In this document: one piece after another, positions 2,903 to 64,000 of the stretch
Position numbering within the stretch: the first letter of the stretch is position 1
Layout: every line of letters starts with the position of its first letter
Origin: Octopus vulgaris
Taxonomy: Eukaryota
Reading direction: 5' to 3'
Length of the DNA stretch: 64,000 nt
NCBI GenBank assembly: GCA_951406725.2
Contig: OX597814.1
Location: 98,270,001 to 98,334,000, forward strand
Made by a program: the position numbers and the translations under genes
The notes under the pieces: generated by a model
The model's input: only the letters and a program-made list of their open reading frames with translations
Databases searched by the model: none
Told to the model about the DNA's origin: nothing

Positions 2903-2944
<42 letters not shown>

Positions 2945-2959
2945 TTGAGATTCAGTCTC

Positions 2960-3650
2960 AACTCATGGCTCGCCACTTCATCTTACGTGGGTATCCCCTC
3001 ACCACTATCCACACCGCCCTTACTAGAGCACGTTCCGTGGACCGTGCATCTGCTTTCTCCCCACGAACCCACCCTGCAGTCTCCCGCCTCTCTTTACCCC
3101 TCACTTATCACCTACCACCCTACTTCTCCATAATCATCATCATTGTTCGACCGTGAAAAGACTACCTCTCCAACACACCATTCTCCGAGCTTTCCGGCAT
3201 CTCCAGTCCGACCCGTCCACTTCACACATCTTCCCTAACCGACACCTCCCCTCCTCCAAACGAGCCCACAACCCACGAGACCTCTTGGTCCAAGGCTTCT
3301 TCTCCAACCCAAACTCCCAACCTGACTCGTTCCCCTGCCCACCCACGCTGCCGCACTTGCCCTTACCTCTCCAACACCACACTCCTCACCGGCACCTATC
3401 ATCGACCCTATCACATCACCGACTCCTTCACCTGCACTTCTACCAACATCATCTATTGCATCTTTTTTCTGTCTGCCATTCTCTGTACATCGGATAAATG
3501 GGACGCCGCTTGGCTGACCGGTTCGCGGAACACCTCCGAGACATCCGCCTCGGCAATGATATCCCGGTCTCACACCATTTCCGCTCTACCGGTCACTCTT
3601 TGCAACACCTGTCTGTGTTCGGATTGTCATTGCACAATAGCCATCCAGAC
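2960..3650 (+). mobile_element. Penelope-like element remnant: RT C-terminal linker and GIY-YIG endonuclease (frameshifted)
   Basis: Translations ...FILRGYP..., FTCTSTNIIYCI, CHSLYIG*MGRRLADRFAEHLRDIR and PVSHHF...GHS are typical PLE GIY-YIG motifs. Confidence 0.85.
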
Positions 3651-3946
3651 TACACACACACGCATACATACACATACATAACGCGACGCGTTATTAGAAG
3701 GTTCAGGGAGCAGTATTTAGTCATCTATGAAATTACGATATGCTATTACTATATAAATCCAATCATGAAATCAAAGGTTAAGCTAAATGGTAGATTCCAC
3801 GTCACATTACATAATGTGAAAAGAAGAAAACATTTTTGACATTTCTAATATTTTTGACAAAGGCATAAAAATATCAAATATATGTATCGCACAAACCCAC
3901 CACACCCACCCACCCACACATGTATATACATATATACATGTGTGTG

Positions 3947-13015: not shown

Positions 13016-13154
13016 AATATATATATATATAATATTAGGGAATAAATTATTATTCCAACCTTACAGGCAAAATTCTGTATAATAATATTAAACCGAATTT
13101 CGTAATATATAATATATAATATAAGCGAGAATGAAGCAACAAGAATGGATAGGT

Positions 13155-13245
13155 TTTTAGTACAATCGTTTCATACAAGGACAGGTTTTATTAAAAGTTG
13201 CAAAAATTACAGCATATAAACGTGTCCCGTACTCATCAGCTAAAA
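13155..13245 (-). ncRNA. Type I hammerhead ribozyme motif (left arm)
   Basis: Mirror copy of 13897-13987. Confidence 0.8.
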
Positions 13246-13896
13246 TACATGTGAATTCTCTAGACATCCTAGTGGTTGAGGCTATACTCATGAAGTAATG
13301 TAGATAATTAAGTAACATAAACAGATTTCTAAAGTTCATTAAAGTTCTTTAAAGATGATGTACAGTCTTATCACAGAATTTTAAAAAAGTCTTAATAGCA
13401 TCACAGAGAAGGTGACCTAATCCATAGTGCACATATGAATTTCCAGAGATATGATGAGGGATTACATACTCACAGAAGACAAATTTATCCATTGTTAATT
13501 ACAACGAGGTGGGTTTCAATTCCTGCTTATTAGCATTACAGAGAGGGTGAATTAATCCTTTGTATAGATGCACAATTTCCAATGGTGTAGGTGTAAATTT
13601 CCAAGGAATTTCACCCACCTCGTTGAAACCCACCTCGTTGTAATTAACAATGGATAAATTTGTCTTCTGTGAGTATGTAATCCCTCATCATATCTCTGGA
13701 AATTCATATGTGCACTATGGATTAGGTCACCTTCTCTGTGATGCTATTAAGACTTTTTTAAAATTCTGTGATAAGACTGTACATCATCTTTAAAGAACTT
13801 TAATGAACTTTAGAAATCTGTTTATGTTACTTAATTATCTACATTACTTCATGAGTATAGCCTCAACCACTAGGATGTCTAGAGAACTCACATGTA

Positions 13897-13987
13897 TTTT
13901 AGCTGATGAGTACGGGACACGTTTATATGCTGTAATTTTTGCAACTTTTAATAAAACCTGTCCTTGTATGAAACGATTGTACTAAAA
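13897..13987 (+). ncRNA. Type I hammerhead ribozyme motif (right arm)
   Basis: ttttag CTGATGA gtacgggaca...tgtccttgtat GAAA cgatt GTA ctaaaa; 6-bp stem I, long stem II, short stem III. Confidence 0.8.
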
Positions 13988-14150
13988 ACCTATCCATTCT
14001 TGTTGCTTCATTCTCGCTTATAATCACCCCACATTACTGTATTGTTAAATCAGTATAGTTTTTTTGGTGCATCTAAGTTAGGTACCATATTCAAGTAAAT
14101 TCATTTAAATTAACTTGAATCTTTATTGCTTTTTAATATATAATATATGT

Positions 14151-15828: not shown

Positions 15829-15887
15829 ATTATAGTGAAGGGAAGAAATGTAGCTGAACGAAGATTCTACAGAATTCCTTTTATTAC

Positions 15888-15969
15888 TTTCTACACATGT
15901 TTCAAAGGCCGCAAATTTCCAAATTCGGACTGAATAAGGAGGCCATTTTGCAGCTTTCTCTTCAGGAAA
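15888..15969 (-). ncRNA. Type I hammerhead ribozyme motif
   Basis: Minus strand tttc CTGAAGA g aaagctgcaaa...tttgcggccttt GAAA catgt GTA gaaa. Confidence 0.75.
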
Positions 15970-16091
15970 ATCCAGGAATTTAAAACTTCAAAACAAATGC
16001 GCACCAAGGTATTCGAACAAAACGCTCCTTAGGAGCCCATGAAATGGCACAAAAACTCCTTAACAAGATAATTCATTTATCCATTTCAATA

Positions 16092-16919: not shown

Positions 16920-18045
<1,126 letters not shown>

Positions 18046-21404: not shown

Positions 21405-21549
<145 letters not shown>

Positions 21550-21650
21550 CGGGGTGAGTACTTGATAATTATAAGCACCTGTGTATACCGTTTGGTGGTG
21601 TAGGTGGTGGAGTAAATTGATCAAAATAAAAACATGATGCCAAGGATTCA

Positions 21651-21728
21651 GCGGTACATATGTTTCGGGCCTTTATTAGACAGATTTATAACAATGCATA
21701 ATGTATGTCTGTGGCCTTCTTCAGCCGC
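21651..21728 (-). ncRNA. Type I hammerhead ribozyme motif
   Basis: Mirror copy of 22001-22078. Confidence 0.8.
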
Positions 21729-22000
21729 GCAAACAGCTTCCACAAGGACATGTGTTACATCAAAAATTCTTGGTTGGGGATGCAAATCCTCTCATTCGCG
21801 TACGACATAATGCGGCAACAGCATAGAATTGAAGCGTCCATCTCTTTCTTCTCTCAATGTAGAATCTACATTGAGAGAAGAAAGAGATGGACGCTTCAAT
21901 TCTATGCTGTTGCCGCATTATGTCGTACGCGAATGAGAGGATTTGCATCCCCAACCAAGAATTTTTGATGTAACACATGTCCTTGTGGAAGCTGTTGTGC

Positions 22001-22078
22001 GCGGCTGAAGAAGGCCACAGACATACATTATGCATTGTTATAAATCTGTCTAATAAAGGCCCGAAACATATGTACCGC
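22001..22078 (+). ncRNA. Type I hammerhead ribozyme motif
   Basis: gcgg CTGAAGA a ggcc acaga...tctgt...ggcc c GAAA catat GTA ccgc; palindromic stem III ACATATGT. Confidence 0.8.
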
Positions 22079-22111
22079 TGAATCCTTGGCATCATGTTTT
22101 TATTTTGATCA

Positions 22112-22171
<60 letters not shown>

Positions 22172-22255
22172 TTTAAATAAAAGTTTGACTTAATTTCATA
22201 TGAATTAAAATTTCGTGGGCATGCAGGACGGACGCATTTCATTAGATATCTTCTG

Positions 22256-30396: not shown

Positions 30397-31968
30397 TGAA
30401 AAGGAACACACGAATTGATATATATGGAAAAAGTCAAGGTAGAAAATGTTAAAATACTTTTATAAAAAACATTTCAGTACCATAAAGTAGTTGTATACTG
30501 TCAACTTAATGCGACAGTCCCATAAAGGAAATCATACTACTGCTATTTAGCCCTAGGAAGCAGCAACGCTTCCCGTCGGTCTTGACACATTTCTGTGTCC
30601 TTATGTTTACAAGGGGGAGACAAGCGAAGCCAGCACTTAGGGACGAGATTCTGAGTCTTTCCTCGTTATCAGTCTGGGGTAGCATGGCCTGCTGGTTGGA
30701 GATGCCTATCTAGCTCTTGTAAACATATAAGAAATCTACAAAAATAGAAACAATGCATTTCTAAATATCTCAGAGAGATTTATGCCGTAGTGATACGATA
30801 AAGTAGTTGTATACTGTCAACTTAATATGACAGTCCCATGAAGGGAATCATACTATTGCTATTTAGTCCTAGGAAGCAGCAATGCTTCCTGTCGGCCTTG
30901 ACACATTTCCTGTATACTTATGCTTAGAAGGGGAGACAAGCACCCCCACCCAGCTAAGCCTGCAACCAGAGATTAGTTTTCATAGTATTCAAATACAAGG
31001 GGCATGTTCCTTGTTTCTGCCTGTCTCTGTCTCTCTTATTTACTCTTGTAGGGGATTATTTCTATTTGTGTAATATGCATCAAGTTTTACATTATTAAAA
31101 GTTGATATATGCTTAAATAGGTTTTTGGTTACCGAAAATCCAATCCTTATTATTTTATTATTAATTATAGTACTATATCTATTAGAAGTGAAATGCTTAT
31201 CTATGATAGAACGAATTACTCGGATAAGGTTAGTTCTTATCATTTTGCCGTATGGTAAGATAAGCCAGATATTATCATCCTTTTTATTGAGGCATTTCAC
31301 GTTGTTTTCGTGTGTATGTTTTATATATGGAAGATGTTACGTTTTAAGGATTTTTTTTAGTTTTCTTTTATTGTTTAGTCTGTAGTTAGGTCCATGTTGA
31401 TTGTAATTCATATTTATATTATCGTTATGATTGCAATTATTTCTATTTCTATGATTATGCTTATTAATGTTAATTTTCGGTTCATTTGTATTTATTATAA
31501 TCAAGTCTTCATTTACCTTGTTATTTGTCTGTGGGTTATCATTATGTGTGTCTAATTTAATTTTCTGTTTGTATCCTGCCTTAGCTAATGCTGAGTTATA
31601 ATAATCTTTATTTATATTAAAAATTTTTTGACTAGATGAAAGGTAATTAATTCTACGTTGAATATTTTTAACTAAGCAATTTGTGATTGTTTTATGATGA
31701 TAACTTTCTAAAATGGAAAATATCCCTTGCATTTGAAAGCTATGAAAATATTTTTTAAAAATACATTTCATTTAATTTAAAATTATAATAAAATAATAAA
31801 ATAAGAAGGATTGGATTTTCGGTAATTATTTTTCATACTTTACACTAAGTTGAAAAAGTCGCAATGACTGAAACCGGTACTAAAATGTTCTTCATGGTAA
31901 AATTATTTTAGCATTTTCTACCTTGTCTTATTTTCCTTATACATATCAATTCGCGTGTTCCTTTTCAT
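30397..31968 (-). mobile_element. Penelope-like element remnant bracketed by inverted terminal segments
   Basis: Minus ORFs: YHHKTITNCLVKNIQRRINYLSSSQKIFN...YNSALAKAGY and NIWLILPYGK...IIDKHF...IRIGFSVTKNL. 30397-30481 is inverted vs 31876-31966; 30482-30630 is duplicated at 30798-30945. Confidence 0.8.
31848..31881 (+). ncRNA. Minimal hammerhead with U3-A8 core (UUGAAAA)
   Basis: ag TTGAAAA agtc gcaat gact GAAA ccg GTA ct; perfect stem II, palindromic stem III ACCGGT, stem I only 2 bp. Confidence 0.6.
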
Positions 31969-38360: not shown

Positions 38361-38630
38361 TCTACATCGAGTGAAAAACGGGATGGACGCTTTGGTTTTG
38401 TTTTGGTGCCTAGCTCTCTTGTACACGACTATGATGATTTGCATCCCCAACGTAAATCGTCTTTTTCCCAAGCTTATAATGTAATGCATGTCCTTGAAGT
38501 AGTAATTGTACGCGGCTGAAGAAGGCTATTGACATACAAATTACATCAATTATGCATTGATATAAACCGTCTAATAAAAGCCAGAAACATATGTACTGCT
38601 AAATCCTTTGCATCATGTTTTTATTTTGAT
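38361..38630 (+). mobile_element. Diverged monomer of the 21613-22116 palindrome unit
   Basis: Starts tctacat like the palindrome centre and ends gcatcatgtttttattttgat like the arm end; (TA)n flanks. Confidence 0.85.
38512..38599 (+). ncRNA. Type I hammerhead ribozyme motif
   Basis: gcgg CTGAAGA a ggct...agcc a GAAA catat GTA ctgc. Confidence 0.75.
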
Positions 38631-38787
38631 AAATATATATATTATATTATATTAAATTAGAGATAAAACCACTATTAGGCAAATCAAACAATGAAAAACT
38701 TAAGCCAATACATAAAATTAATTAATTTAAATTATTTTAAATATATATCAAAAGCATTAAAAGATTAATAAAAGATAATGATTAAAG

Positions 38788-47154: not shown

Positions 47155-48620
47155 TTTTCTAGTTTTTAATTATTACAAAGCTTCCACTGAGGAGGAAGCC
47201 GGTTTCCAACAAAGATACAAGGTTCCATCTTTGGAATGTAGTTAATACAGACAAATTCACATTTCAATCCACCTGTCAGTCATCGTAAGTCGAACTTTTT
47301 TACTTAAATGACCCCTGTTCTATCATAATTGAAAACAGTGTTGCTTTACTGTCAAGGTCAACTCCACGTCTTCTTCAGTCCAAGCAACGTCGTTCTCTTT
47401 GACTCTGTGTGTTCGTGTTCCAATCCTCTTTTCATATCGTCCGCCGCCATTATTTTCAATCCTCCTCTCAGTTATCGTAAGTCGAACTATTTTACTGTTC
47501 CACTCACAGATTGGTCAATTTCTCTTTCTGAAAATCTCAGTTTATCCATATTCTCAGTTAAGCATTTACTAACAGAACCTAGTGCTCCAATTATTATTGG
47601 TATGAATATGAATTCATAGTCTGGATATAAAAGCTGGAGGTTTCGAAGCAGTTGTCCATATATATACTCTTTTCTCTGATTTTCAAAGAGATACATCTGC
47701 AGGGCAGCTAACCTCTATGATGCCTTTGCCCCTCTGTCTCAAACAACAATATTCGGCATATTATGTTTATATTTGACTGAAGTTTTGATGGGAATATCCC
47801 ACCAGTATTCCTTGAGTTGGTGTTTATGAATGTAGTCCATAATAGAGGGATTTTCTAAGTTTATTTCAGGATAGTCTCTTTTGCGGATGGCATTGTAAAC
47901 TCTTTTAGTAACAACATCGTGCCGCATAGGGAGTTAGTACCGTGACGACATTTTAGGACAACTGCTAATCACATGCGTAATGTCTTCCACAGGAACATGA
48001 CATAGCCTACACACGCAGTTGCGCCTTGGAATTACAAAAGCGTCACTGTCTCTCTTGTTCACCAGCACTTTGTGGAAATCTCCTGTTCCTGGATTGCAAA
48101 CGCATAACCTTCAAAGTGTGATGTAGTGGTCTTGTATCCAAGAGAGGCTGCACTTCGTAACAATTCTACTGTCTTCTTCAAGCCTCCGGGTAACATACCC
48201 ATGCATGGTCTTTTTCTTTTTGTATGCTGAGTACTTTCCATCCAGGTCTTCTCTGAGGTAAGAGAGCCCAGCTATTTTGGGGCTGTATAGGATATCATAA
48301 GAAAGAGAGTGTTTCTTGAGGAGTTACTGCCAACTCGTACAATGCTGCTCACTTCACTTTTCAGCACTGCATTAATGCATTATTTTTGCTGCTGTCGTTT
48401 AGCAGGTGCTGCCTGAGCGATACCATACGGTATTCGAAGGCCGTCTGCACCAATATCAGGCCTCTACCACCTTCATTTTTTGTTAGGTAGAGCCTGTCAA
48501 CATCACTGTTTTTATGGAAGTTCCCAGTTGTCAGGATTTTGCGGGTTTTGATATTTACGGAGTGGATTTCCTCTACAGGCCAATCAAGTATCCCAAATGT
48601 TGGGATCAGTACTAGTACTG
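47155..48620 (-). mobile_element. R4/Dong-type LINE 3' portion (decayed)
   Basis: Peptides DVDRLYL...GGRGL, SHFEGYAFAIQEQEI, CRLCHVPVEDITHVISSCP, RHDVV...WWDIPIKT...HNMPNIVV, and FIPIIIGALG. Confidence 0.85.
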
Positions 48621-48689
48621 TATATGAATTGTGGGATTTTGTTTTGTTATAAGAAGAGAGTTCCGACTGCCATATTTATGTATATATAT

Positions 48690-48736
<47 letters not shown>

Positions 48737-48788
48737 TATACATATATATATATATATATACATATATATATACATTTATATATATGTG

Positions 48789-48856
<68 letters not shown>

Positions 48857-48859
<3 letters not shown>

Positions 48860-49196
48860 AGGCAGAATGCTAAATGTAAAGTAAATTTTAATAAAAATGG
48901 GTGTATGAAAAATTAAAAAAGAAAAAATAATAAATCAGGCCAGCTTTCATTGCAAGGCAAATTTTCAAGATTTGGAAGGGGAAAAATATTTTTATAAAAT
49001 TGAGGAAGGGGAAAAAATTTACAATGCTTTTAAAAAAAAAAATAATAATACATATATACAAAAATTAATAAATAAGTATACCTTTACATTGTAGAGTCAT
49101 TATGCTTTTAGAGTTCAATAATAGTCCTTGGAAAAACTTCTTTGGAGGATTAGGATGGATGCGTTTAAATGTAGTGTATATTTTGAAAGAGTGGGA
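48857..49196 (-). mobile_element. PLE-like 3' end family (second copy 54058-54212)
   Basis: Shared taaggcagaatgctaaat...ttggaagggg block; carries a U3-A8 hammerhead; minus-strand GLLLNSKS peptide upstream. Confidence 0.65.
48932..48973 (-). ncRNA. U3-A8 hammerhead motif (cleavage triplet decayed)
   Basis: Minus strand aaatc TTGAAAA t ttgc ctt gcaa t GAAAG ctgg CCT gattt. Confidence 0.55.
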
Positions 49197-49199
49197 TCA

Positions 49200-52100
49200 C
49201 CCCACTCTTTCAGAAGGGAAGAAAAAAGGTGAATGAGAGCAAGAAAGCAAAAAGATCAGTGATGACCACACCACATCTTGAGTGGACCAAAGAAGACGTG
49301 AAGAGACGCGAACACACAGAGACACAGAGAAAGCGACGCTGAGTGGACCGAAGACGTAGAGGTGACCTTGACAAGAGAGGAAAACTGTTGTAAAAGGTGA
49401 TACAACAGAGGTCAATCAAGTAAAATAGTTCGACTTACGATAACTGAGAGGAGGATTGAAAATAATGGCGGCGGACGATATGAAAAGAGAATTGGAACAC
49501 GAACACACAAAGTCAGAAAGAACGACGTTGCTTGGACTGAAGAAGACGTGGAGTTGACCTTGACAGTAAAGCAACACTGTTTTCAATTGTGATAGAACAG
49601 GGGTCATTTAAGTAAAAAAGTTCGACTTACGATGACTGACAGGTGGATTGAAAAATGGTAGCGGACGGCATGAACAGAGGAGTGGAGCGATGCGAACACA
49701 CAGAGACAGAGAGGGAAATGATGAAGCATGGAACAATGGCGGCGGACGGCATGAAAAAAGCCAAATTTACGGACGTACGCCATGGCATCCTGTGCCGTTT
49801 ATTCATGTATCGAGGTGAGCCAGTGTAGCTTGACGAAAGTATAATATATTGTCCAACGTTGGTAGCGTCACCTTCACGCTGCAACGCATCCCGAAGACCA
49901 GCGTAATTAGTAGCTCTCAGCTCGGTTTGATGGGTACGTATGTAGAGAAGACGTTCCACCTTAATCTTTGTGTTCGCCAACTTGTAGCCAACTTGTAGCC
50001 AGTCTAACCTGTCTTTCTTCCGCAGTTTCGTTAAGGATTGGTTGTTGTCGTCGACTGCGCTGGGCAGAAAGTCGGGCCTCTCTTGCACCTGGGGTTTCAG
50101 TCAGACGTGCAGGTTGGTTTCTATCATGCTGGACTGAAAGACGGGCTTCTCTTACAGCTGGGGGTCTCCTTCATGCTTGAGCGTTGGTCTCTATCACGTT
50201 GGGCTGAAAGACGAGACTTCCTTGCAGCTGGAGTCTCCCTCAAGCGTGAGCGTTGGCGTTGAATGTGTCGGGTAGAGAGGCAAGCTTCCGTTGTTTCAGG
50301 ATTTTCATCTAGACGTAAGTTGTTGGAGTTATTTCCCTGGTCAGCAAGAGGAACCTCCCTTGCTTCTAGAGTCTCCGACAGAAGAAACACTTGATCAGAA
50401 GTAGCCTAATTGTGGCAAAAGTAGAAATGACCGACATAGTTAAGATTTTAAACGCAGAAAAAATTAGATTTTGGGGGTCAGACACAAAATTCAATGAAAA
50501 AATAAAGCAGGGTACATAAATGAAATTAATTTTGACAAATATATGGCACAATTTTCCCGATATAATAGAATTGTGGATGCATTTTAAATAAATTTTCATA
50601 AAGGTTAAAGCTCTGATACCAACCTTTTTATCAATTTTCTCCAATGTCAGTATAAAAAATGAATATTCAAAATTTTCCTGATCGACTTCAATGTCATTGA
50701 TGTCGACACGTGCACTGTTTTCCTATGACGCTATAAAGCAAATCCGTGTTGTTTAAGAATGCGTTCTTGGGAAGCTGAAGTGTAGCTTATTTTTGAAGAG
50801 TTAATAATGTTATTTAATAGCGAAATAAGTGAAATAGTGATGCCCAATATAATTAAATGTAACGCCTAACGTAACGCAGTAATAATTGAGAACGTAGTGT
50901 TTATGTTTACCGAAAAAAGGAATTGCCGAATATTTGGGAGCGTAAGAATCAAAATTTAAAGCTTTTATAACATTTAGCACAAATTTTAGGAAATTAAAAA
51001 CTTTGTCATATAGGTTGCAAATCTTCTTAAAACTAACCAAATGTAGGTAAGGCTCTCAAAATTTGTTAAAAAGAAAATAATATTCGATATCGGTAAAAAG
51101 AGTATGTGAACATCAAGACGTGAGCGTTTGTTATTGACGCCCAGGTCGGCCACGGGGGCCTCCCTTGCCTCTGGAATGTCCTCCAAAAGCAAGTTTTGGT
51201 TGTGAGGAGTAGCCAGAGACGTAGCCTGATTGCAAAAGATATACAGAATAATCAGCCAATGTTCAGAAATTCTACAACGTTGTTACGAAACAAATAGATA
51301 CAAACGAAAATATGGGGGGGCAAGTCGAAATTTTGGAGAATACGTAGTCTTACCGGCGAAATAGCGGTCTCGCTGATGTGCAAGTTAAATTTTACAGAGT
51401 GATAAAGCAGATGTTTAATTTGTAAACATGTAAAAATGAACTAGAGCTTATTATCTAACTAACAATTATGTTTTAAAGCCGAATTAATGTTTATCAATGG
51501 AAAAATACCAATAAAGAACGTACCTGTGCACGCACCTCCTTCCTTCGCAATTTCAGGACTTTATTTCGTTTCTTAGAAAAGACTGAGCGTTTTCGGTTTG
51601 GCATATCGTATAACGATACTAAAAAGGCATGAAAAATAAGGCCTTAAGTTAATATGCTTAACAACTAACAAAAACGTATTGGTTTACATTGGATGAAGTG
51701 TCAACCAAAAAGTGGAAAGATAATGAAATTAATAAATATAGCTCATTGAAAAATTAATGTTCAAAGAAGTAGTAAACCATTGTAAATTTTTTGAGAAATC
51801 GAGAGGCATTGAATTAAGATGCCTAAGTAGTAATGGGATAAAAGTAATTCAGCTTTAATAATGGACCAATCTATCCATGCAAATAAGGATAAAGTAAAAA
51901 TGTAATAGTATAGTATTGTGTAATACTATCGACGCATCGTTAATTAAAAAATCGATAAGCATTCTCGGTGAAACGTGAAAAAATCACGCCTGTCGTCTCG
52001 TGACACTAAATCGAGAAAATAAAAATAACCGTAAATTTGATTATTTTTGTACTCATCGGCGGAATTTTTGAACAAGTCAAAATCTAAAAAATATATCTCA

Positions 52101-57218: not shown

Positions 57219-57254
<36 letters not shown>

Positions 57255-57258
<4 letters not shown>

Positions 57259-57320
57259 CTATAAATCTCACTAAAACTAAAGAGGCGACCCAGTGACGGA
57301 GAGAGTGAGGAGAAAAGTTA

Positions 57321-57367
<47 letters not shown>

Positions 57368-57520
57368 AACTATGAATCTCACTAAAACTAAAGAGGCGAC
57401 CCGAGTGATAACGGCGAGAGTGAGAAAAGTTACGAAATATATATATATATATATATTCTAACTATGATCTCAATCTAAAACTAAAGAGGCGTCGACGGGA
57501 GAGAGTGAGGAGAAAAGTTA

Positions 57521-57559
<39 letters not shown>

Positions 57560-58082
57560 ATGAATCTCGATCTAAAATTAAAGAATGGCGTTTCATACAA
57601 GCATATTAAAAGGCGACGGGAGAGAGTGAGGAGAAAAGTTACGCATATATATATATATATATATATATATAGCATCACAGAGAAGGTGACCCAATCCATA
57701 GTGCACATATGAATTTCCAGAGATATGATGAGGGATTACATACTCACAGAAAGCAAATTTATCCATTGTTAATTACAACGAGGTGGGTTTCAATTCCTGC
57801 TTATTAGCATTACAGAGAGGGTGAATTAATCCTTTGTATAGATGCACAATTTCCAATGGTGTAGGTGTAAATTTCCAAGGAATTTCATATTCACAGGCGA
57901 TAAATTTATCAATGGTTGAACACAATGAGGTAGGTATCAAATCTTGCTATATGATTAGGTATTTGCCACATTAATCACATTACTGCTATTTACAAGAGTA
58001 ATATATATATATATATATCTAACTATGAATCTCGATCTAAAACTAAAGAGGCGGCGACGGTAGAGAGTGAGGAGAAAAGTTA

Positions 58083-58121
<39 letters not shown>

Positions 58122-58183
58122 AACTATGAATCTCGATCTAAAACTAAAGAGGCGGCGACGGGAGAGAGTGAGGAGAAAAGTTA

Positions 58184-58248
<65 letters not shown>

Positions 58249-58312
58249 CTAACTATGAATCTCGATCTAAAATTAAAGAGGCGGCGACGGGAGAGAGTGA
58301 GGAGAAAAGTTA

Positions 58313-58363
<51 letters not shown>

Positions 58364-58423
58364 CTATGAATCTCGATCTAAAATTAAAGAGGCGGCGCCG
58401 GGAGAGAGTGAGGAGAAAAGTTA

Positions 58424-58456
<33 letters not shown>

Positions 58457-58516
58457 CTATGAATCTCGATCTAAAACTAAAGAGGCGTCGACGGGAGAGA
58501 GTGAGGAGAAAAGTTA

Positions 58517-58577
<61 letters not shown>

Positions 58578-58637
58578 CTATGAATCTCGATCTAAAACTA
58601 AAGAGGCGTCGACGGGAGAGAGTGAGGAGAAAAGTTA

Positions 58638-58688
<51 letters not shown>

Positions 58689-58750
58689 AACTATGAATCT
58701 CGATCTAAAACTAAAGAGGCGTCGACGGGAGAGAGTGAGGAGAAAAGTTA

Positions 58751-58789
<39 letters not shown>

Positions 58790-58851
58790 AACTATGAATC
58801 TCGATCTAAAACTAAAGAGGCGTCGACGGGAGAGAGTGAGGAGAAAAGTTA

Positions 58852-58903
<52 letters not shown>

Positions 58904-58963
58904 CTATGAATCTCGATCTAAAACTAAAGAGGCGGCGACGGTAGAGAGTGAGGAGAAAAGTTA

Positions 58964-59006
<43 letters not shown>

Positions 59007-59068
59007 AACTATGAATCTCGATCTAAAACTAAAGAGGCGGCGACGGTAGAGAGTGAGGAGAAAAGTTA

Positions 59069-59107
<39 letters not shown>

Positions 59108-59169
59108 AACTATGAATCTCGATCTAAAACTAAAGAGGCGGCGACGGGAGAGAGTGAGGAGAAAAGTTA

Positions 59170-59240
<71 letters not shown>

Positions 59241-59302
59241 AACTATGAATCTCGATCTAAAACTAAAGAGGCGGCGACGGGAGAGAGTGAGGAGAAAAGT
59301 TA

Positions 59303-59341
<39 letters not shown>

Positions 59342-59403
59342 AACTATGAATCTTGATCTAAAATTAAAGAGGCGGCAACGGGAGAGAGTGAGGAGAAAAG
59401 TTA

Positions 59404-59460
<57 letters not shown>

Positions 59461-59529
59461 CTATGAATCTCGATCTAAAACTAAAGAGGCGTCGACGGGA
59501 GAGAGTGAGGAGAAAAGTTACGCATATAT

Positions 59530-59604
<75 letters not shown>

Positions 59605-59670
59605 ATGAATCTCGATCTAAAACTAAAGAGGCGTCGACGGGAGAGAGTGAGGAGAAATGTTACGCATATA
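57255..59670. repeat. Satellite of about 19-20 units: ~66-bp constant block plus variable (TA)n
   Basis: Unit taactatgaatctcgatctaaaactaaagaggcg(g/t)cgacgggagagagtgaggagaaaagttacgc(at)n. Confidence 0.95.
57670..58000 (+). mobile_element. Fragment of the 13120-14022 element family inside the satellite
   Basis: 57670-57887 is near identical to 13396-13613. Confidence 0.9.
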
Positions 59671-59674
59671 TATG

Positions 59675-61130
59675 GCGACTGATAACACTGTGCCACACAT
59701 AAGAATGCTTTATACATGCATTAACCTCATCGGCTCTAGTGCCTGCTCGGACAACAGGAAGAGTTTGTCGAAAATCTCCTGCCATGAGAAACGTAGCTCC
59801 ACCCATTATTTTTGTATTGTGACGCAAATTTGTTGGAGAGTTCTGTCAAGAGCCTCAAACAATTACTCATTGTAGCCTCATCCCAAATAAAAAGACTGCA
59901 TTCACGAAGAGTCTTGCTCTTGAGGAACTACGATCTATATTACATATAGGATTATCTTTCTTTCCAATGTCCATGGGCAATTTGAATGCACCATGTGCCG
60001 TACGGCCGCCTTGAAGCAGTGTCGCTGCAATACCACTTGAGGCACATGCAATGACAAATCGACGTTCAGCGCGCAGCTTTGCGAGAATCAAATTGATAAC
60101 GAAAGTTTTACCAGTACCACCTGGAGCATTCAAAAAGAACAGCTTTCCTTGGTTCAATCTAACGCTGTCAATAATTTCATTATAAATCTCTCTTTGTTCG
60201 TGCAAAAGTCTTGGTTCATCTCGCGTACTTGTTTCCGTCAATTCGGCAACGTTGTAGTTTTTTTCTGACATGTATTCAACATCCAAAGGCGCTTCATGAT
60301 GGACAGGTGTTGGCAGATGGAATTCACTTAAACCGCGTATAACATAGCGTCTGATGTGTCTGTCCATGTCGATTAATGCCTCATTATAAACATCGTCGTT
60401 GCCATCACGTAGCGCTAAATTAGCCTGTATGTCCTTTGATAGGCTCTGTCTGAACGATTCCCAAAGGTTAAAAGGGTTGCTGGGATTACAGTGGATTAAT
60501 ATGCTACAAAACAATCGACGCATTTGCCATGGCAGTTTACAATTTGAGGCCTCTGCTAATGTCCTGTGTAAGTGGTCGTCATTGAGAAGAAGTCCGCGCC
60601 TCAAACATGCTTCCCTGTAAGTGGCGCAGATGATACCATCATCCGTGCGAAGATCAGCAAAAGACTTTCGTCCAGTAACTACATGAAGTAGCATTCTCAA
60701 AGAGATTTCCTGTTTGGTAGGATGAATATTATACACACGTCCAATGACGTTCTTCCTAGAAACACCGGGCCAATTGTCAAGTTCTGTTCCATGTGACCTG
60801 CGCTTCCAATTATTATTGTTGTATGTGTAATATTCCGGTACTTCAGGGTAAATGAGAGTAGCAGCAAACTCATCAACTGAACACAATTTAAAAAATGCTG
60901 TAAGCGTAGTCCCTTTTGGATTTTCAATGACTTGACGTGCATGTTTCTCTGTGAAGTAAACCAGCTGTCTCTTCTGTAAATGAACATTCAGGTGGAAAAC
61001 TGATGGTGAGCTTAGATGAATCTCGTATCCAAAAATGCGCCACGCTGCATAATTGTACATACCTACCGAAAACGTTGTGCGGCCACACCAAAACACGGCC
61101 ATATCATCGCCCTTATTAATGTACTTGGGT
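59675..61130 (-). pseudogene. Helitron RepHel fragment (post-Rep region, helicase motifs I-III)
   Basis: AAWRIFGYEIH, TTLTAFF, TYREAC..RGLL..D, APGGTGKTF (Walker A), ASSGIAATLLQGGRTAH, then frameshifted GDFRQTLPV. Confidence 0.95.
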
Positions 61131-62027: not shown

Positions 62028-62088
62028 CATACATATATGTATATATATATATATACATACATACATATATGTATATATATATATATAT

Positions 62089-62729
62089 AAAATAAGAAAA
62101 TGGAGGAATAGATTTCTTTCAGTCATCAACTACCAGATAATACCAATTCATATAATTTATTAACTAATTATTTAGATTAAATAGGAACATCCAAATCCAA
62201 CAGAATAATACAGAATAAAACAATATACATCAATAAGTAAAATAATACCATAAGAATAATACATATAAAATGGATCTTACAGCTGTTTAAGCCTGTAGAT
62301 AATAGTATCTCATTATGTATATATGTATATATGCTTATTCTTGTATATGTGTACCTTCTTTAATATTCATATTTGCATTTTATATCTTCATTTTATATCT
62401 TTATAATTATACTTTGCAATCTCTGACTAGGCCTTGAGATATATCTATAAGTAACTCATTTTTAATTATATATTACCTCAATACATCTGACTAATATGAG
62501 CATAATGAGATACTATTATCTACAGGCTGAAACAACTGTAAGATCCATTTTATATGTATTATTCTTATGGTATTATTTTACTTATTGATGTATATTGTTT
62601 TATTCTGTATTATTCTGTTGGATTTGGATGTTCCTATTTAATCTAAATAATTAGTTAATAAATTATATGAATTGGTATTATCTGGTAGTTGATGATTGAA
62701 AGAAATCTATTCCTCCATTTTCTTATTTT
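62089..62729. mobile_element. Fold-back element with 229-bp inverted arms
   Basis: 62089-62317 is the reverse complement of 62501-62729 with few mismatches. Confidence 0.9.
62419..62544 (+). ncRNA. Hammerhead motif with ~90-nt loop II and G8 changed to U
   Basis: atct CTGACTA ggcct...aggct GAAA caact GTA agat. Confidence 0.55.
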
Positions 62730-62902
62730 GTATTATGAATTTGAGGTAAAGCATTTAACCTTCGCCCATATAATACAATAAATGAATGAATTGCATTGCA
62801 ATTCTTAGCATTTATGTATTAGCCTTTCTGGGTACTTTACTGGCAGTATATTGGATAAATGATATCCCATAGTGGGTTACACTCATAACCCCTATCTCAC
62901 TT

Positions 62903-62959
<57 letters not shown>

Positions 62960-62964
<5 letters not shown>

Positions 62965-64000
62965 GACAACTGCTTATGATGTGGCTGATATTCTCAGTGT
63001 GAACTCCACAAAGTCTGCATCGGTTGTCACCTTTTACGGTTTTTCCCGTATCTCTATCCCTTTTGTGGATCAGGTACTTGGTTAATATTTCCTGTTCATG
63101 GATTGCAAACGCATACCATTCAAAGTGGGATGTAGTAATCCGGCTGTTGGTCCATGATAAACTGCTTTGATGATTGCTGTTACTATCATCACGGAACTTT
63201 CTAACAACATATCCATGCATAATCTTTTGCTCATATAGGTTCATCCTTTCATCTGATGATACGTTGCTGTAGGGTCGGGCGACTTCTTTGGGCATGTATT
63301 CTAGACAAAGAGTGTTGCTCAAGGAGCTGTCTCCTAAGCGTTATGATGTTATCAGTCTCATGCATGCAAACTTGGTCAAGAGACTCTTGGTGGTTAAAAG
63401 ATGTTGCCGAAGAGATATGATGCGACATTCAAAGGCATTTAGGCTCGATGTTAAGCCTCCGCCGCCTTGTTTACGTTTTTGGTAGAGATGGTCTACATTA
63501 TGTGTGCCTGTTAGTATTTTTCGGTTTTCACATCAGTGGCTCGGAGCTCATCGAGCGTCCAATCAAGCAGCCCAAGTATTGGTATGAATACTGTCACTGC
63601 AAACACATTGTGGGCCACTGTTTTATTAAATGCAGAGAGTTCTGAGGTCTAAAGTTTCTTTATTCGGCTGTAATATTCTTTAGTGACACGTGTCTTGCTG
63701 CAGGTACCGTTGTAAGTTATATTTTCATCGAACCCCCCTAGATACCTGTAATATTCCAAGTCAGATACAGGGGAAACAGTCAAATCCTTGATGGAGATAT
63801 TACTAGTCTAGTTTATAGTTTTCCCCTTTTCACAACCACATAACAACATTTATCCTGACCAAACTCCAGCCCTAAATCCTTTGAGAATGTTTTAACAAGG
63901 TCAATGCTCTTTTTCATCTCATGGATATCCTTTGCATAAAGTTTTAAGTCATCCACAAAGAAACAGTGTGTAATTTTGGTATTTCTGTTTCCTTGTGAGC
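62960..64000 (-). mobile_element. R4/Dong-type LINE remnant (RT to zinc knuckle), runs off the window
   Basis: ITHCFFVDDLKLYA...FSKDLGLEFGQDKC, VDHLYQKRKQGGGGL, SHFEWYAFAIHEQEI, CRLCGVHTENISHIISSCP. Confidence 0.9.

Follow-up and report, generated by a model that had tools for sequence, protein, structure and literature searches.

The 504-base palindrome at positions 21613–22116 of the analysed window (the whole 64,000-nucleotide stretch of the Octopus vulgaris contig OX597814.1) very probably consists of two 5′-truncated copies of the hammerhead end of a high-copy non-coding repeat, placed head-to-head within a (TA)n tract by a single insertion event of a Penelope-like element (PLE) protein. 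It is most likely an ordinary inverted insertion product of PLEs and not a new self-copying ribozyme element. The geometry of the locus, the two kinds of 3′ end, the (TA)n flanks, the many related copies and the continuation of the family sequence upstream of the axis are directly observed. An inverted 5′-truncated head-to-head copy, a type I hammerhead of the PLE type and a one-sided 3′ tail are all found at the locus. Membership of the family in the PLEs is likely, but not proven since no reverse transcriptase-endonuclease frame is tied to it.

Self-comparison resolves the palindrome into a left arm of 251 nt (21613–21863), with the element sense on the minus strand, a single nucleotide, and a right arm of 252 nt (21865–22116) with the element sense on the plus strand. 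The palindrome announced in the preliminary description is real, but with its one-nucleotide centre, the A at 21864, it is an odd palindrome and not strictly spacer-less; once folded, it leaves a 3-nt AAT loop (21863–21865) at the head-to-head junction. The family sequence of the left arm goes on to 21865. The two arms differ solely by a 1-nt indel, the left arm being without one G near 21731, and the base in question is present in the contigs of all four sequencing runs that were mapped. A 66-nt 3′ tail (21547–21612, minus strand), whose AC-rich start abuts the short 3′ end, is confined to the left arm, while the right arm finishes at the short, tail-less end itself; both kinds of end terminate in AATT. 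The view of the palindrome as a dimer of a defined unit therefore stands as far as the two head-to-head copies are concerned, but not for their 3′ ends, which differ by the tail present on one of them. On the left the tail is bordered by a (TA)69 tract (21409–21546) and on the right the palindrome runs into a (TA)28 tract (22115–22171), the two portions of what is likely the target microsatellite. TA-rich runs also surround a single copy (monomer) of the family at 38361, and a target-site duplication is unreadable within (TA)n. The window in general is AT-rich, microsatellite-dense, animal-like DNA.

Among the 24 public sequencing runs listed, 20 (from 12 studies) contain 64–82% of the sampled words of 21547–21895. 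Contigs were mapped for four of the 24 runs, X1, X3, X4 and X7, in which 1, 18, 2376 and 770 contigs, respectively, could be fitted; the summed contig depth compares positions only and is not a copy number. In all four runs the depth over the tail was about equal to that over the unit, and single contigs pass from the tail into the unit without extra letters (21547–21862 in X1, 21547–21649 in X3). Since its depth is like that of the unit and both are joined in single contigs, 21547–21612 belongs to the element as its 3′ tail. Further contigs halt at 21616–21620 and then enter (TA)n (one in X3, nine in X4 and four in X7, among the contigs listed); the tail-less end followed by (TA)n, seen in three of the four runs, is the same as that of the right arm and of the 38361 monomer. 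The family accordingly possesses two alternative 3′ ends, each of which occurs once in the palindrome. Some X4 contigs jump back within the tail, from 21603 to 21560 and from 21606 to 21555, producing tandem duplications of ~44–52 nt that possibly reflect renewed priming as reverse transcription begins. Only 839 of the 2376 X4 contigs are alike at the 99+ level. Pattern scans for the family retrieved no copies from metagenome contigs and none from viral contigs, and the family is not described in the titles and abstract beginnings of the papers listed on octopus hammerheads, head-to-head non-autonomous Penelope palindromes and cephalopod Penelope elements.

At the palindrome axis the contig depth collapses, from 413,776 just before to 281 beyond in X4, from 327,996 to 299 in X7 and to zero in X1 and X3. 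This more than 1000-fold drop implies that palindromic copies are rare. It also speaks against the palindrome itself being mobile, as a fold-back or MITE-like element with one ribozyme per strand, for which the near-perfect arms, the TA at both outer ends and the start of both arms within 2 nt of one point could be invoked. The 3′ ends of the arms are unlike, with a tail on one only, a single copy is present at 38361, and the read-through RNA is predicted to fold across the whole palindrome into one hairpin (−485 kcal/mol) that would sequester both ribozymes. We consider a mobile palindrome very improbable, and a MITE or fold-back unit was rejected on account of the asymmetric ends and the loss of depth past the axis. 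The contigs instead show loose ends at 21862–21865 (one contig of 121 nt in X1, five in X4 and four in X7, among those listed) which carry related upstream sequence. As contigs in three of the four runs extend upstream of TCTACAT, both arms of the palindrome are 5′-truncated. A start at TCTACAT is common to all three copies in the window, and the axis at this motif is a preferred stop point and not the fixed element end that had been proposed. Two single X4 contigs have an inverted tail of 20–25 nt joined to sequence starting at 21865 or 21867 and provide weak instances of head-to-head insertion with a very short partner, the sides measuring less than 30 nt.

None of the contigs listed for the four runs bridges the palindrome junction, which gives some weight to the idea that a single copy was turned into a palindrome by misassembly or by a fold-back read. 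In the same sense, no run contains more than 0.82 of the sampled words, approximately what remains after removal of the junction and indel words; most of the X4 depth lacks the left-arm indel, which is possibly a sequencing error, and the window contains long, low-quality-looking TA tracts. However, in a fold-back read the mirror symmetry would extend over the tail, the (TA)69 tract and the DNA behind it, whereas at this locus it ends exactly at the family-typical tail-less 3′ end and is followed by (TA)28 and unrelated DNA. The same geometry moreover recurs in a second family of the window, where the spacer is natural and the junction carries a short duplication. A sequencing or assembly artefact is thus unlikely, and we leave it a rather small chance.

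The second family is an unrelated hammerhead repeat with head-to-head inverted arms of 400 nt (13120–13519 and 13623–14022), which are separated by a 103-nt spacer and have the same outward-pointing orientation as those of the palindrome. According to a third copy of this repeat (57669–57887), 94 of the 103 spacer nucleotides are natural upstream sequence of the longer copy, and the junction carries a short duplication. The 13120–14022 locus is a textbook case of unequal truncation; the palindrome is the limiting case in which truncation is equal. The upstream part of the second repeat has an internal 69% repeat at 57800–57940. A third family is represented by a single type I hammerhead motif at 15835–16090 (minus strand; core at 15965, cut near 15892) between (TA)n tracts. 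No significant similarity among the three hammerhead families of the window was detected outside core-adjacent words (best E 0.07). The window holds further inverted repeats at 62085–62733 (240-nt arms with a 169-nt spacer, behind (TA)n), at 17513–18045 (arms around a (TA)n centre) and at 47262–49653 (235-nt arms 1.9 kb apart with other repeat fragments inside), and the hammerhead descriptor had no match in these three. An array of ~65-nt units with (TA)n of variable length between them (57220–59700) adjoins a Helitron-like helicase frame (PIF1, 59867–61129), and related decayed fragments of a non-LTR retrotransposon with a zf-RVT match are found at 47600–48600 and 62897–63650 (−), one of them ending directly in (TA)n.

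One hammerhead per strand had been noticed from the start, and the descriptor indeed places type I motifs at 22001–22078 in the right arm (plus strand, predicted cut after 22074) and at 21651–21728 in the left arm (minus strand, read from 21728 to 21651, predicted cut after 21655), with their cores 281 nt apart on opposite strands. A corresponding motif occupies 38512–38599 of the single copy (plus strand, predicted cut after 38595). Altogether the descriptor had six matches in the window, one per arm, one in the 38361 copy and three elsewhere, compared to a mean of 0.175 and a maximum of one in 40 shuffled windows. The arm motif is laid out as stem I GCGG/CCGC (4 bp), CTGAAGA, stem II GGCC/GGCC and GAAAC-ATAT-GTA, with an extra A following the CUGAAGA core. 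Domain II contains an internal loop and measures 51 nt in the arm and 61 nt in the monomer, while stem III comprises 2 bp around the palindromic ACAUAUGU, the cut being predicted after GUA. At the sequence level, the conserved core nucleotides C3–A9 and G12–A15, the NUH site and three helices are all present in the motifs. At the base of stem II in the predicted fold an A faces a C in the arm or an A in the monomer, which makes the conserved G10.1–C11.1 pair doubtful; because of an extra C or A before G12, this pair would require a bulge in the arm and would be displaced in the monomer. Rfam gave no match at the gathering score over the whole window, and within 21500–22250 at E values up to 10 it returned hairpin-driven microRNA models and other sub-threshold matches, the hammerhead being absent from them.

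The single copy (38361–38634, plus strand) lies between short TA-rich runs and belongs to a second subfamily, with 72% identity to the palindrome unit (blastn, E 1e-40). As originally reported, it begins with TCTACAT and terminates at the common gcatcatgtttttattttgat; it has the same 5′ start, here directly behind a (TA)n run, and the short 3′ end. Sequence of the monomer type is also present in loose ends of X3, X4 and X7. Differences between arm and monomer are unevenly distributed, with 37 of 134 aligned positions affected 5′ of the hammerhead versus 11 of 112 in the hammerhead and 3′ part (Fisher p 6e-4). This contrast supports the view that the ribozyme half would be under constraint. Selection on ribozyme structure as such, which had been deduced from the same two copies, is upheld only in the sense of a constrained 3′ half, since the 35 nt behind the ribozyme are equally conserved (3/35 positions differing, compared to 8/77 in the ribozyme; p 1.0). 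Given that the ribozyme and its 3′ flank do not differ in this respect, it is the whole 3′ half that is constrained, as would fit a ribozyme plus a protein-recognition end. Upstream of the ribozyme, a 16-nt block conserved between the subfamilies contains ATTTGCAT (21942–21949, plus strand; counterpart near 38446), which we take to be the octamer promoter motif; the block may be an internal promoter element.

From arm to monomer, stem II changes from GGCC/GGCC to GGCT/AGCC and stem I from GCGG/CCGC to GCGG/CTGC, precisely as described, but the helix covariation read into these changes could not be substantiated. The 14 pairs of these two independent sequences contain one two-sided change, one wobble and one inner stem II pair that is broken in the monomer. 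The covariation score was reached by 183 of 500 shuffles, or by 157 of 500 with the other inner register; covariation amounts to one compensatory pair between two sequences and is not significant. Simulations at the observed divergence retained all 10 core pairs with a probability of 0.06, gave at least one compensatory change with 0.16 and both with 0.013, for a set of 10 core pairs that omits the broken inner stem II pair. The wobble in stem I corresponds to a CpG-to-TpG transition. It is missing from the nine variable places listed from public contigs, which do include the neighbouring monomer-type letters at 21641, 21649 and 21682. GGCT occurs in a loose end of X7 and AGCC in a loose end of X4, so that each half of the stem II change is present in other copies, though on different molecules.

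The locus could have been formed in the following way. A PLE endonuclease would nick the TA tract, and reverse transcription would start at one of two internal sites of the RNA, both ending in AATT, which would produce either a tailed or a tail-less end. The cDNA would then tend to halt at TCTACAT, in the putative loop of an imperfect hairpin. The upstream sequence carried by the loose ends has its complement in the first 26 nt of the unit, and neither copy offers it a better pairing site. This complementarity makes it likely that TCTACAT occupies the loop of an imperfect hairpin formed by the longer element. Pairing energies of −14.5 and −12.7 kcal/mol were calculated with the monomer (shuffle p 0.0065 and 0.025), and of −11.2 and −9.5 kcal/mol with the arm (p 0.18 and 0.21, not significant). 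On the basis of this modelling, the junction at 21863–21865 probably corresponds to the loop region of such a natural hairpin. It is a tentative idea, which we would sooner doubt than adopt, that a conserved imperfect hairpin with TCTACAT in its loop sets the point of both arrest and fold-back of reverse transcription. The inverted second copy would arise either by fold-back copying of the cDNA or by a second priming event from the other nicked strand, followed by joining. Fold-back is slightly favoured, given that the two arms are identical in spite of the diversity of the family.

PLE hammerheads are thought to work as dimers (PMC4209133), and a dimer requirement is described for hammerheads with a short stem III (PMC6765202). 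Ribozymes on opposite strands cannot form the cis dimer that these hammerheads need, and the palindrome is therefore expected to lead no further. It is also predicted to be inert, as a single hairpin of 250 bp would form in its read-through RNA. What would have preserved the ribozyme is its role in the active parent element, not any need for it in the palindrome.

Six-frame translation of the palindrome locus revealed no telomerase-related reverse transcriptase or GIY-YIG ORF, and stops occur in all or nearly all frames of both copies. The lack of an ORF at this locus is expected of a 5′-truncated or non-autonomous copy. Elsewhere in the window, visual inspection suggests the CxxC linker and GIY-YIG end of a Neptune-type Penelope in a frameshifted remnant at 2944–3700 (plus strand), and the C-terminal portion of a reverse transcriptase of the Penelope type in a broken frame at 31043–31771 (minus strand). 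For these two regions there was no relevant Pfam match and no homolog at E 0.001 among 12 candidates; in a protein atlas the PLE-like remnants obtained a best score of 0.81, with GIY-YIG on 10% of the members of a rank-9 cluster.

A different origin would make the unit a non-LTR retrozyme or hammerhead SINE, that is a head-to-tail repeat with a circular RNA, and have the palindrome arise later by DNA repair or replication at a fragile TA tract. Non-LTR retrozymes resemble the palindrome unit in being non-coding sequences of 250–320 nt with a type I hammerhead (PMC7229834; 10.64898/2026.07.22.740005), and the low GC content agrees as well (PMC7229834). A 2026 preprint derives retrozymes from the pLTRs of PLEs (10.64898/2026.07.22.740005), so that the retrozyme and PLE classes overlap. 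Retrozymes are however arranged in head-to-tail tandem (PMC7229834), an arrangement found for none of the three copies in the window, which are solo or head-to-head. In addition, the upstream continuation in the contigs differs from the unit's own tail, and a one-sided tail is a PLE signature. A retrozyme followed by later rearrangement is improbable. The palindrome unit itself is, like retrozymes, likely PLE-derived.

Seen as an inverted PLE insertion product, the structure is ordinary for these elements and is not to be taken for a new mobile unit with two ribozymes. The family is young and present in high copy number, and both its 3′ ends and its preferred 5′ stop can be mapped to the base, so that it could serve to test how inverted pLTRs are formed. 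If the hairpin reading is true, the contig record could decide between self-primed fold-back and two-strand priming in PLEs. If transcribed, the locus would yield a perfect 250-bp double-stranded RNA.

The closest counterparts of the palindrome are the insertion units of EN+ PLEs. Arkhipova et al. 2013 (PMC3846280) described palindromes of 18–38 bp at pLTR 5′ ends and palindromes at inverted junctions, in a mostly head-to-head arrangement with a tail on one inverted pLTR, and proposed self-priming. In Craig et al. 2021 (PMC8557442), the same PLE architecture and (TA)n targeting are reported and the mechanism is called unresolved. The palindrome shares with these units the inverted head-to-head copy, the junction palindrome and the one-sided tail (PMC3846280; PMC8557442), as well as arms of pLTR size (~200–250 nt) and a likely TA microsatellite target, in which no target duplication is discernible. 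It differs by the absence of an ORF and of a direct pLTR pair at the locus, by arms that are cut at nearly one point, without a spacer, and by a tail of 66 nt compared to 30–40 nt for published PLE tails.

For the ribozyme, Cervera and de la Peña 2014 (PMC4209133) reported that PLE hammerheads have 4–5 bp in helix I, one additional base separating position 9 from 10.1, and a helix III that is small and palindromic. Dual hammerheads 100–700 bp apart on opposite strands were regarded as probably derived from truncated PLEs (PMC4209133). The motifs of the palindrome resemble these variants in being type I, in their 4-bp helix I, the extra nucleotide after position 9 and the small palindromic helix III, and also in the occurrence of opposite-strand dual motifs and mostly solo copies (PMC4209133). 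They differ from these variants in possessing a domain II of 51–61 nt with an internal loop and an extra C or A before G12. The Poseidon element PAc of the green anole offers a parallel for the 3′ ends. In Frangieh et al. 2024 (PMC11167929), two internal reverse transcription start sites define the tail, and both target strands are cleaved and extended. The PAc ribozyme overlaps the ORF start (PMC11167929), whereas the region is non-coding in the octopus family. By analogy, the two start sites of PAc would match the two 3′ ends of the palindrome family, and its AC-rich tail start, AT-rich target and AATT 3′ ends would likewise find their equivalents there (PMC11167929).
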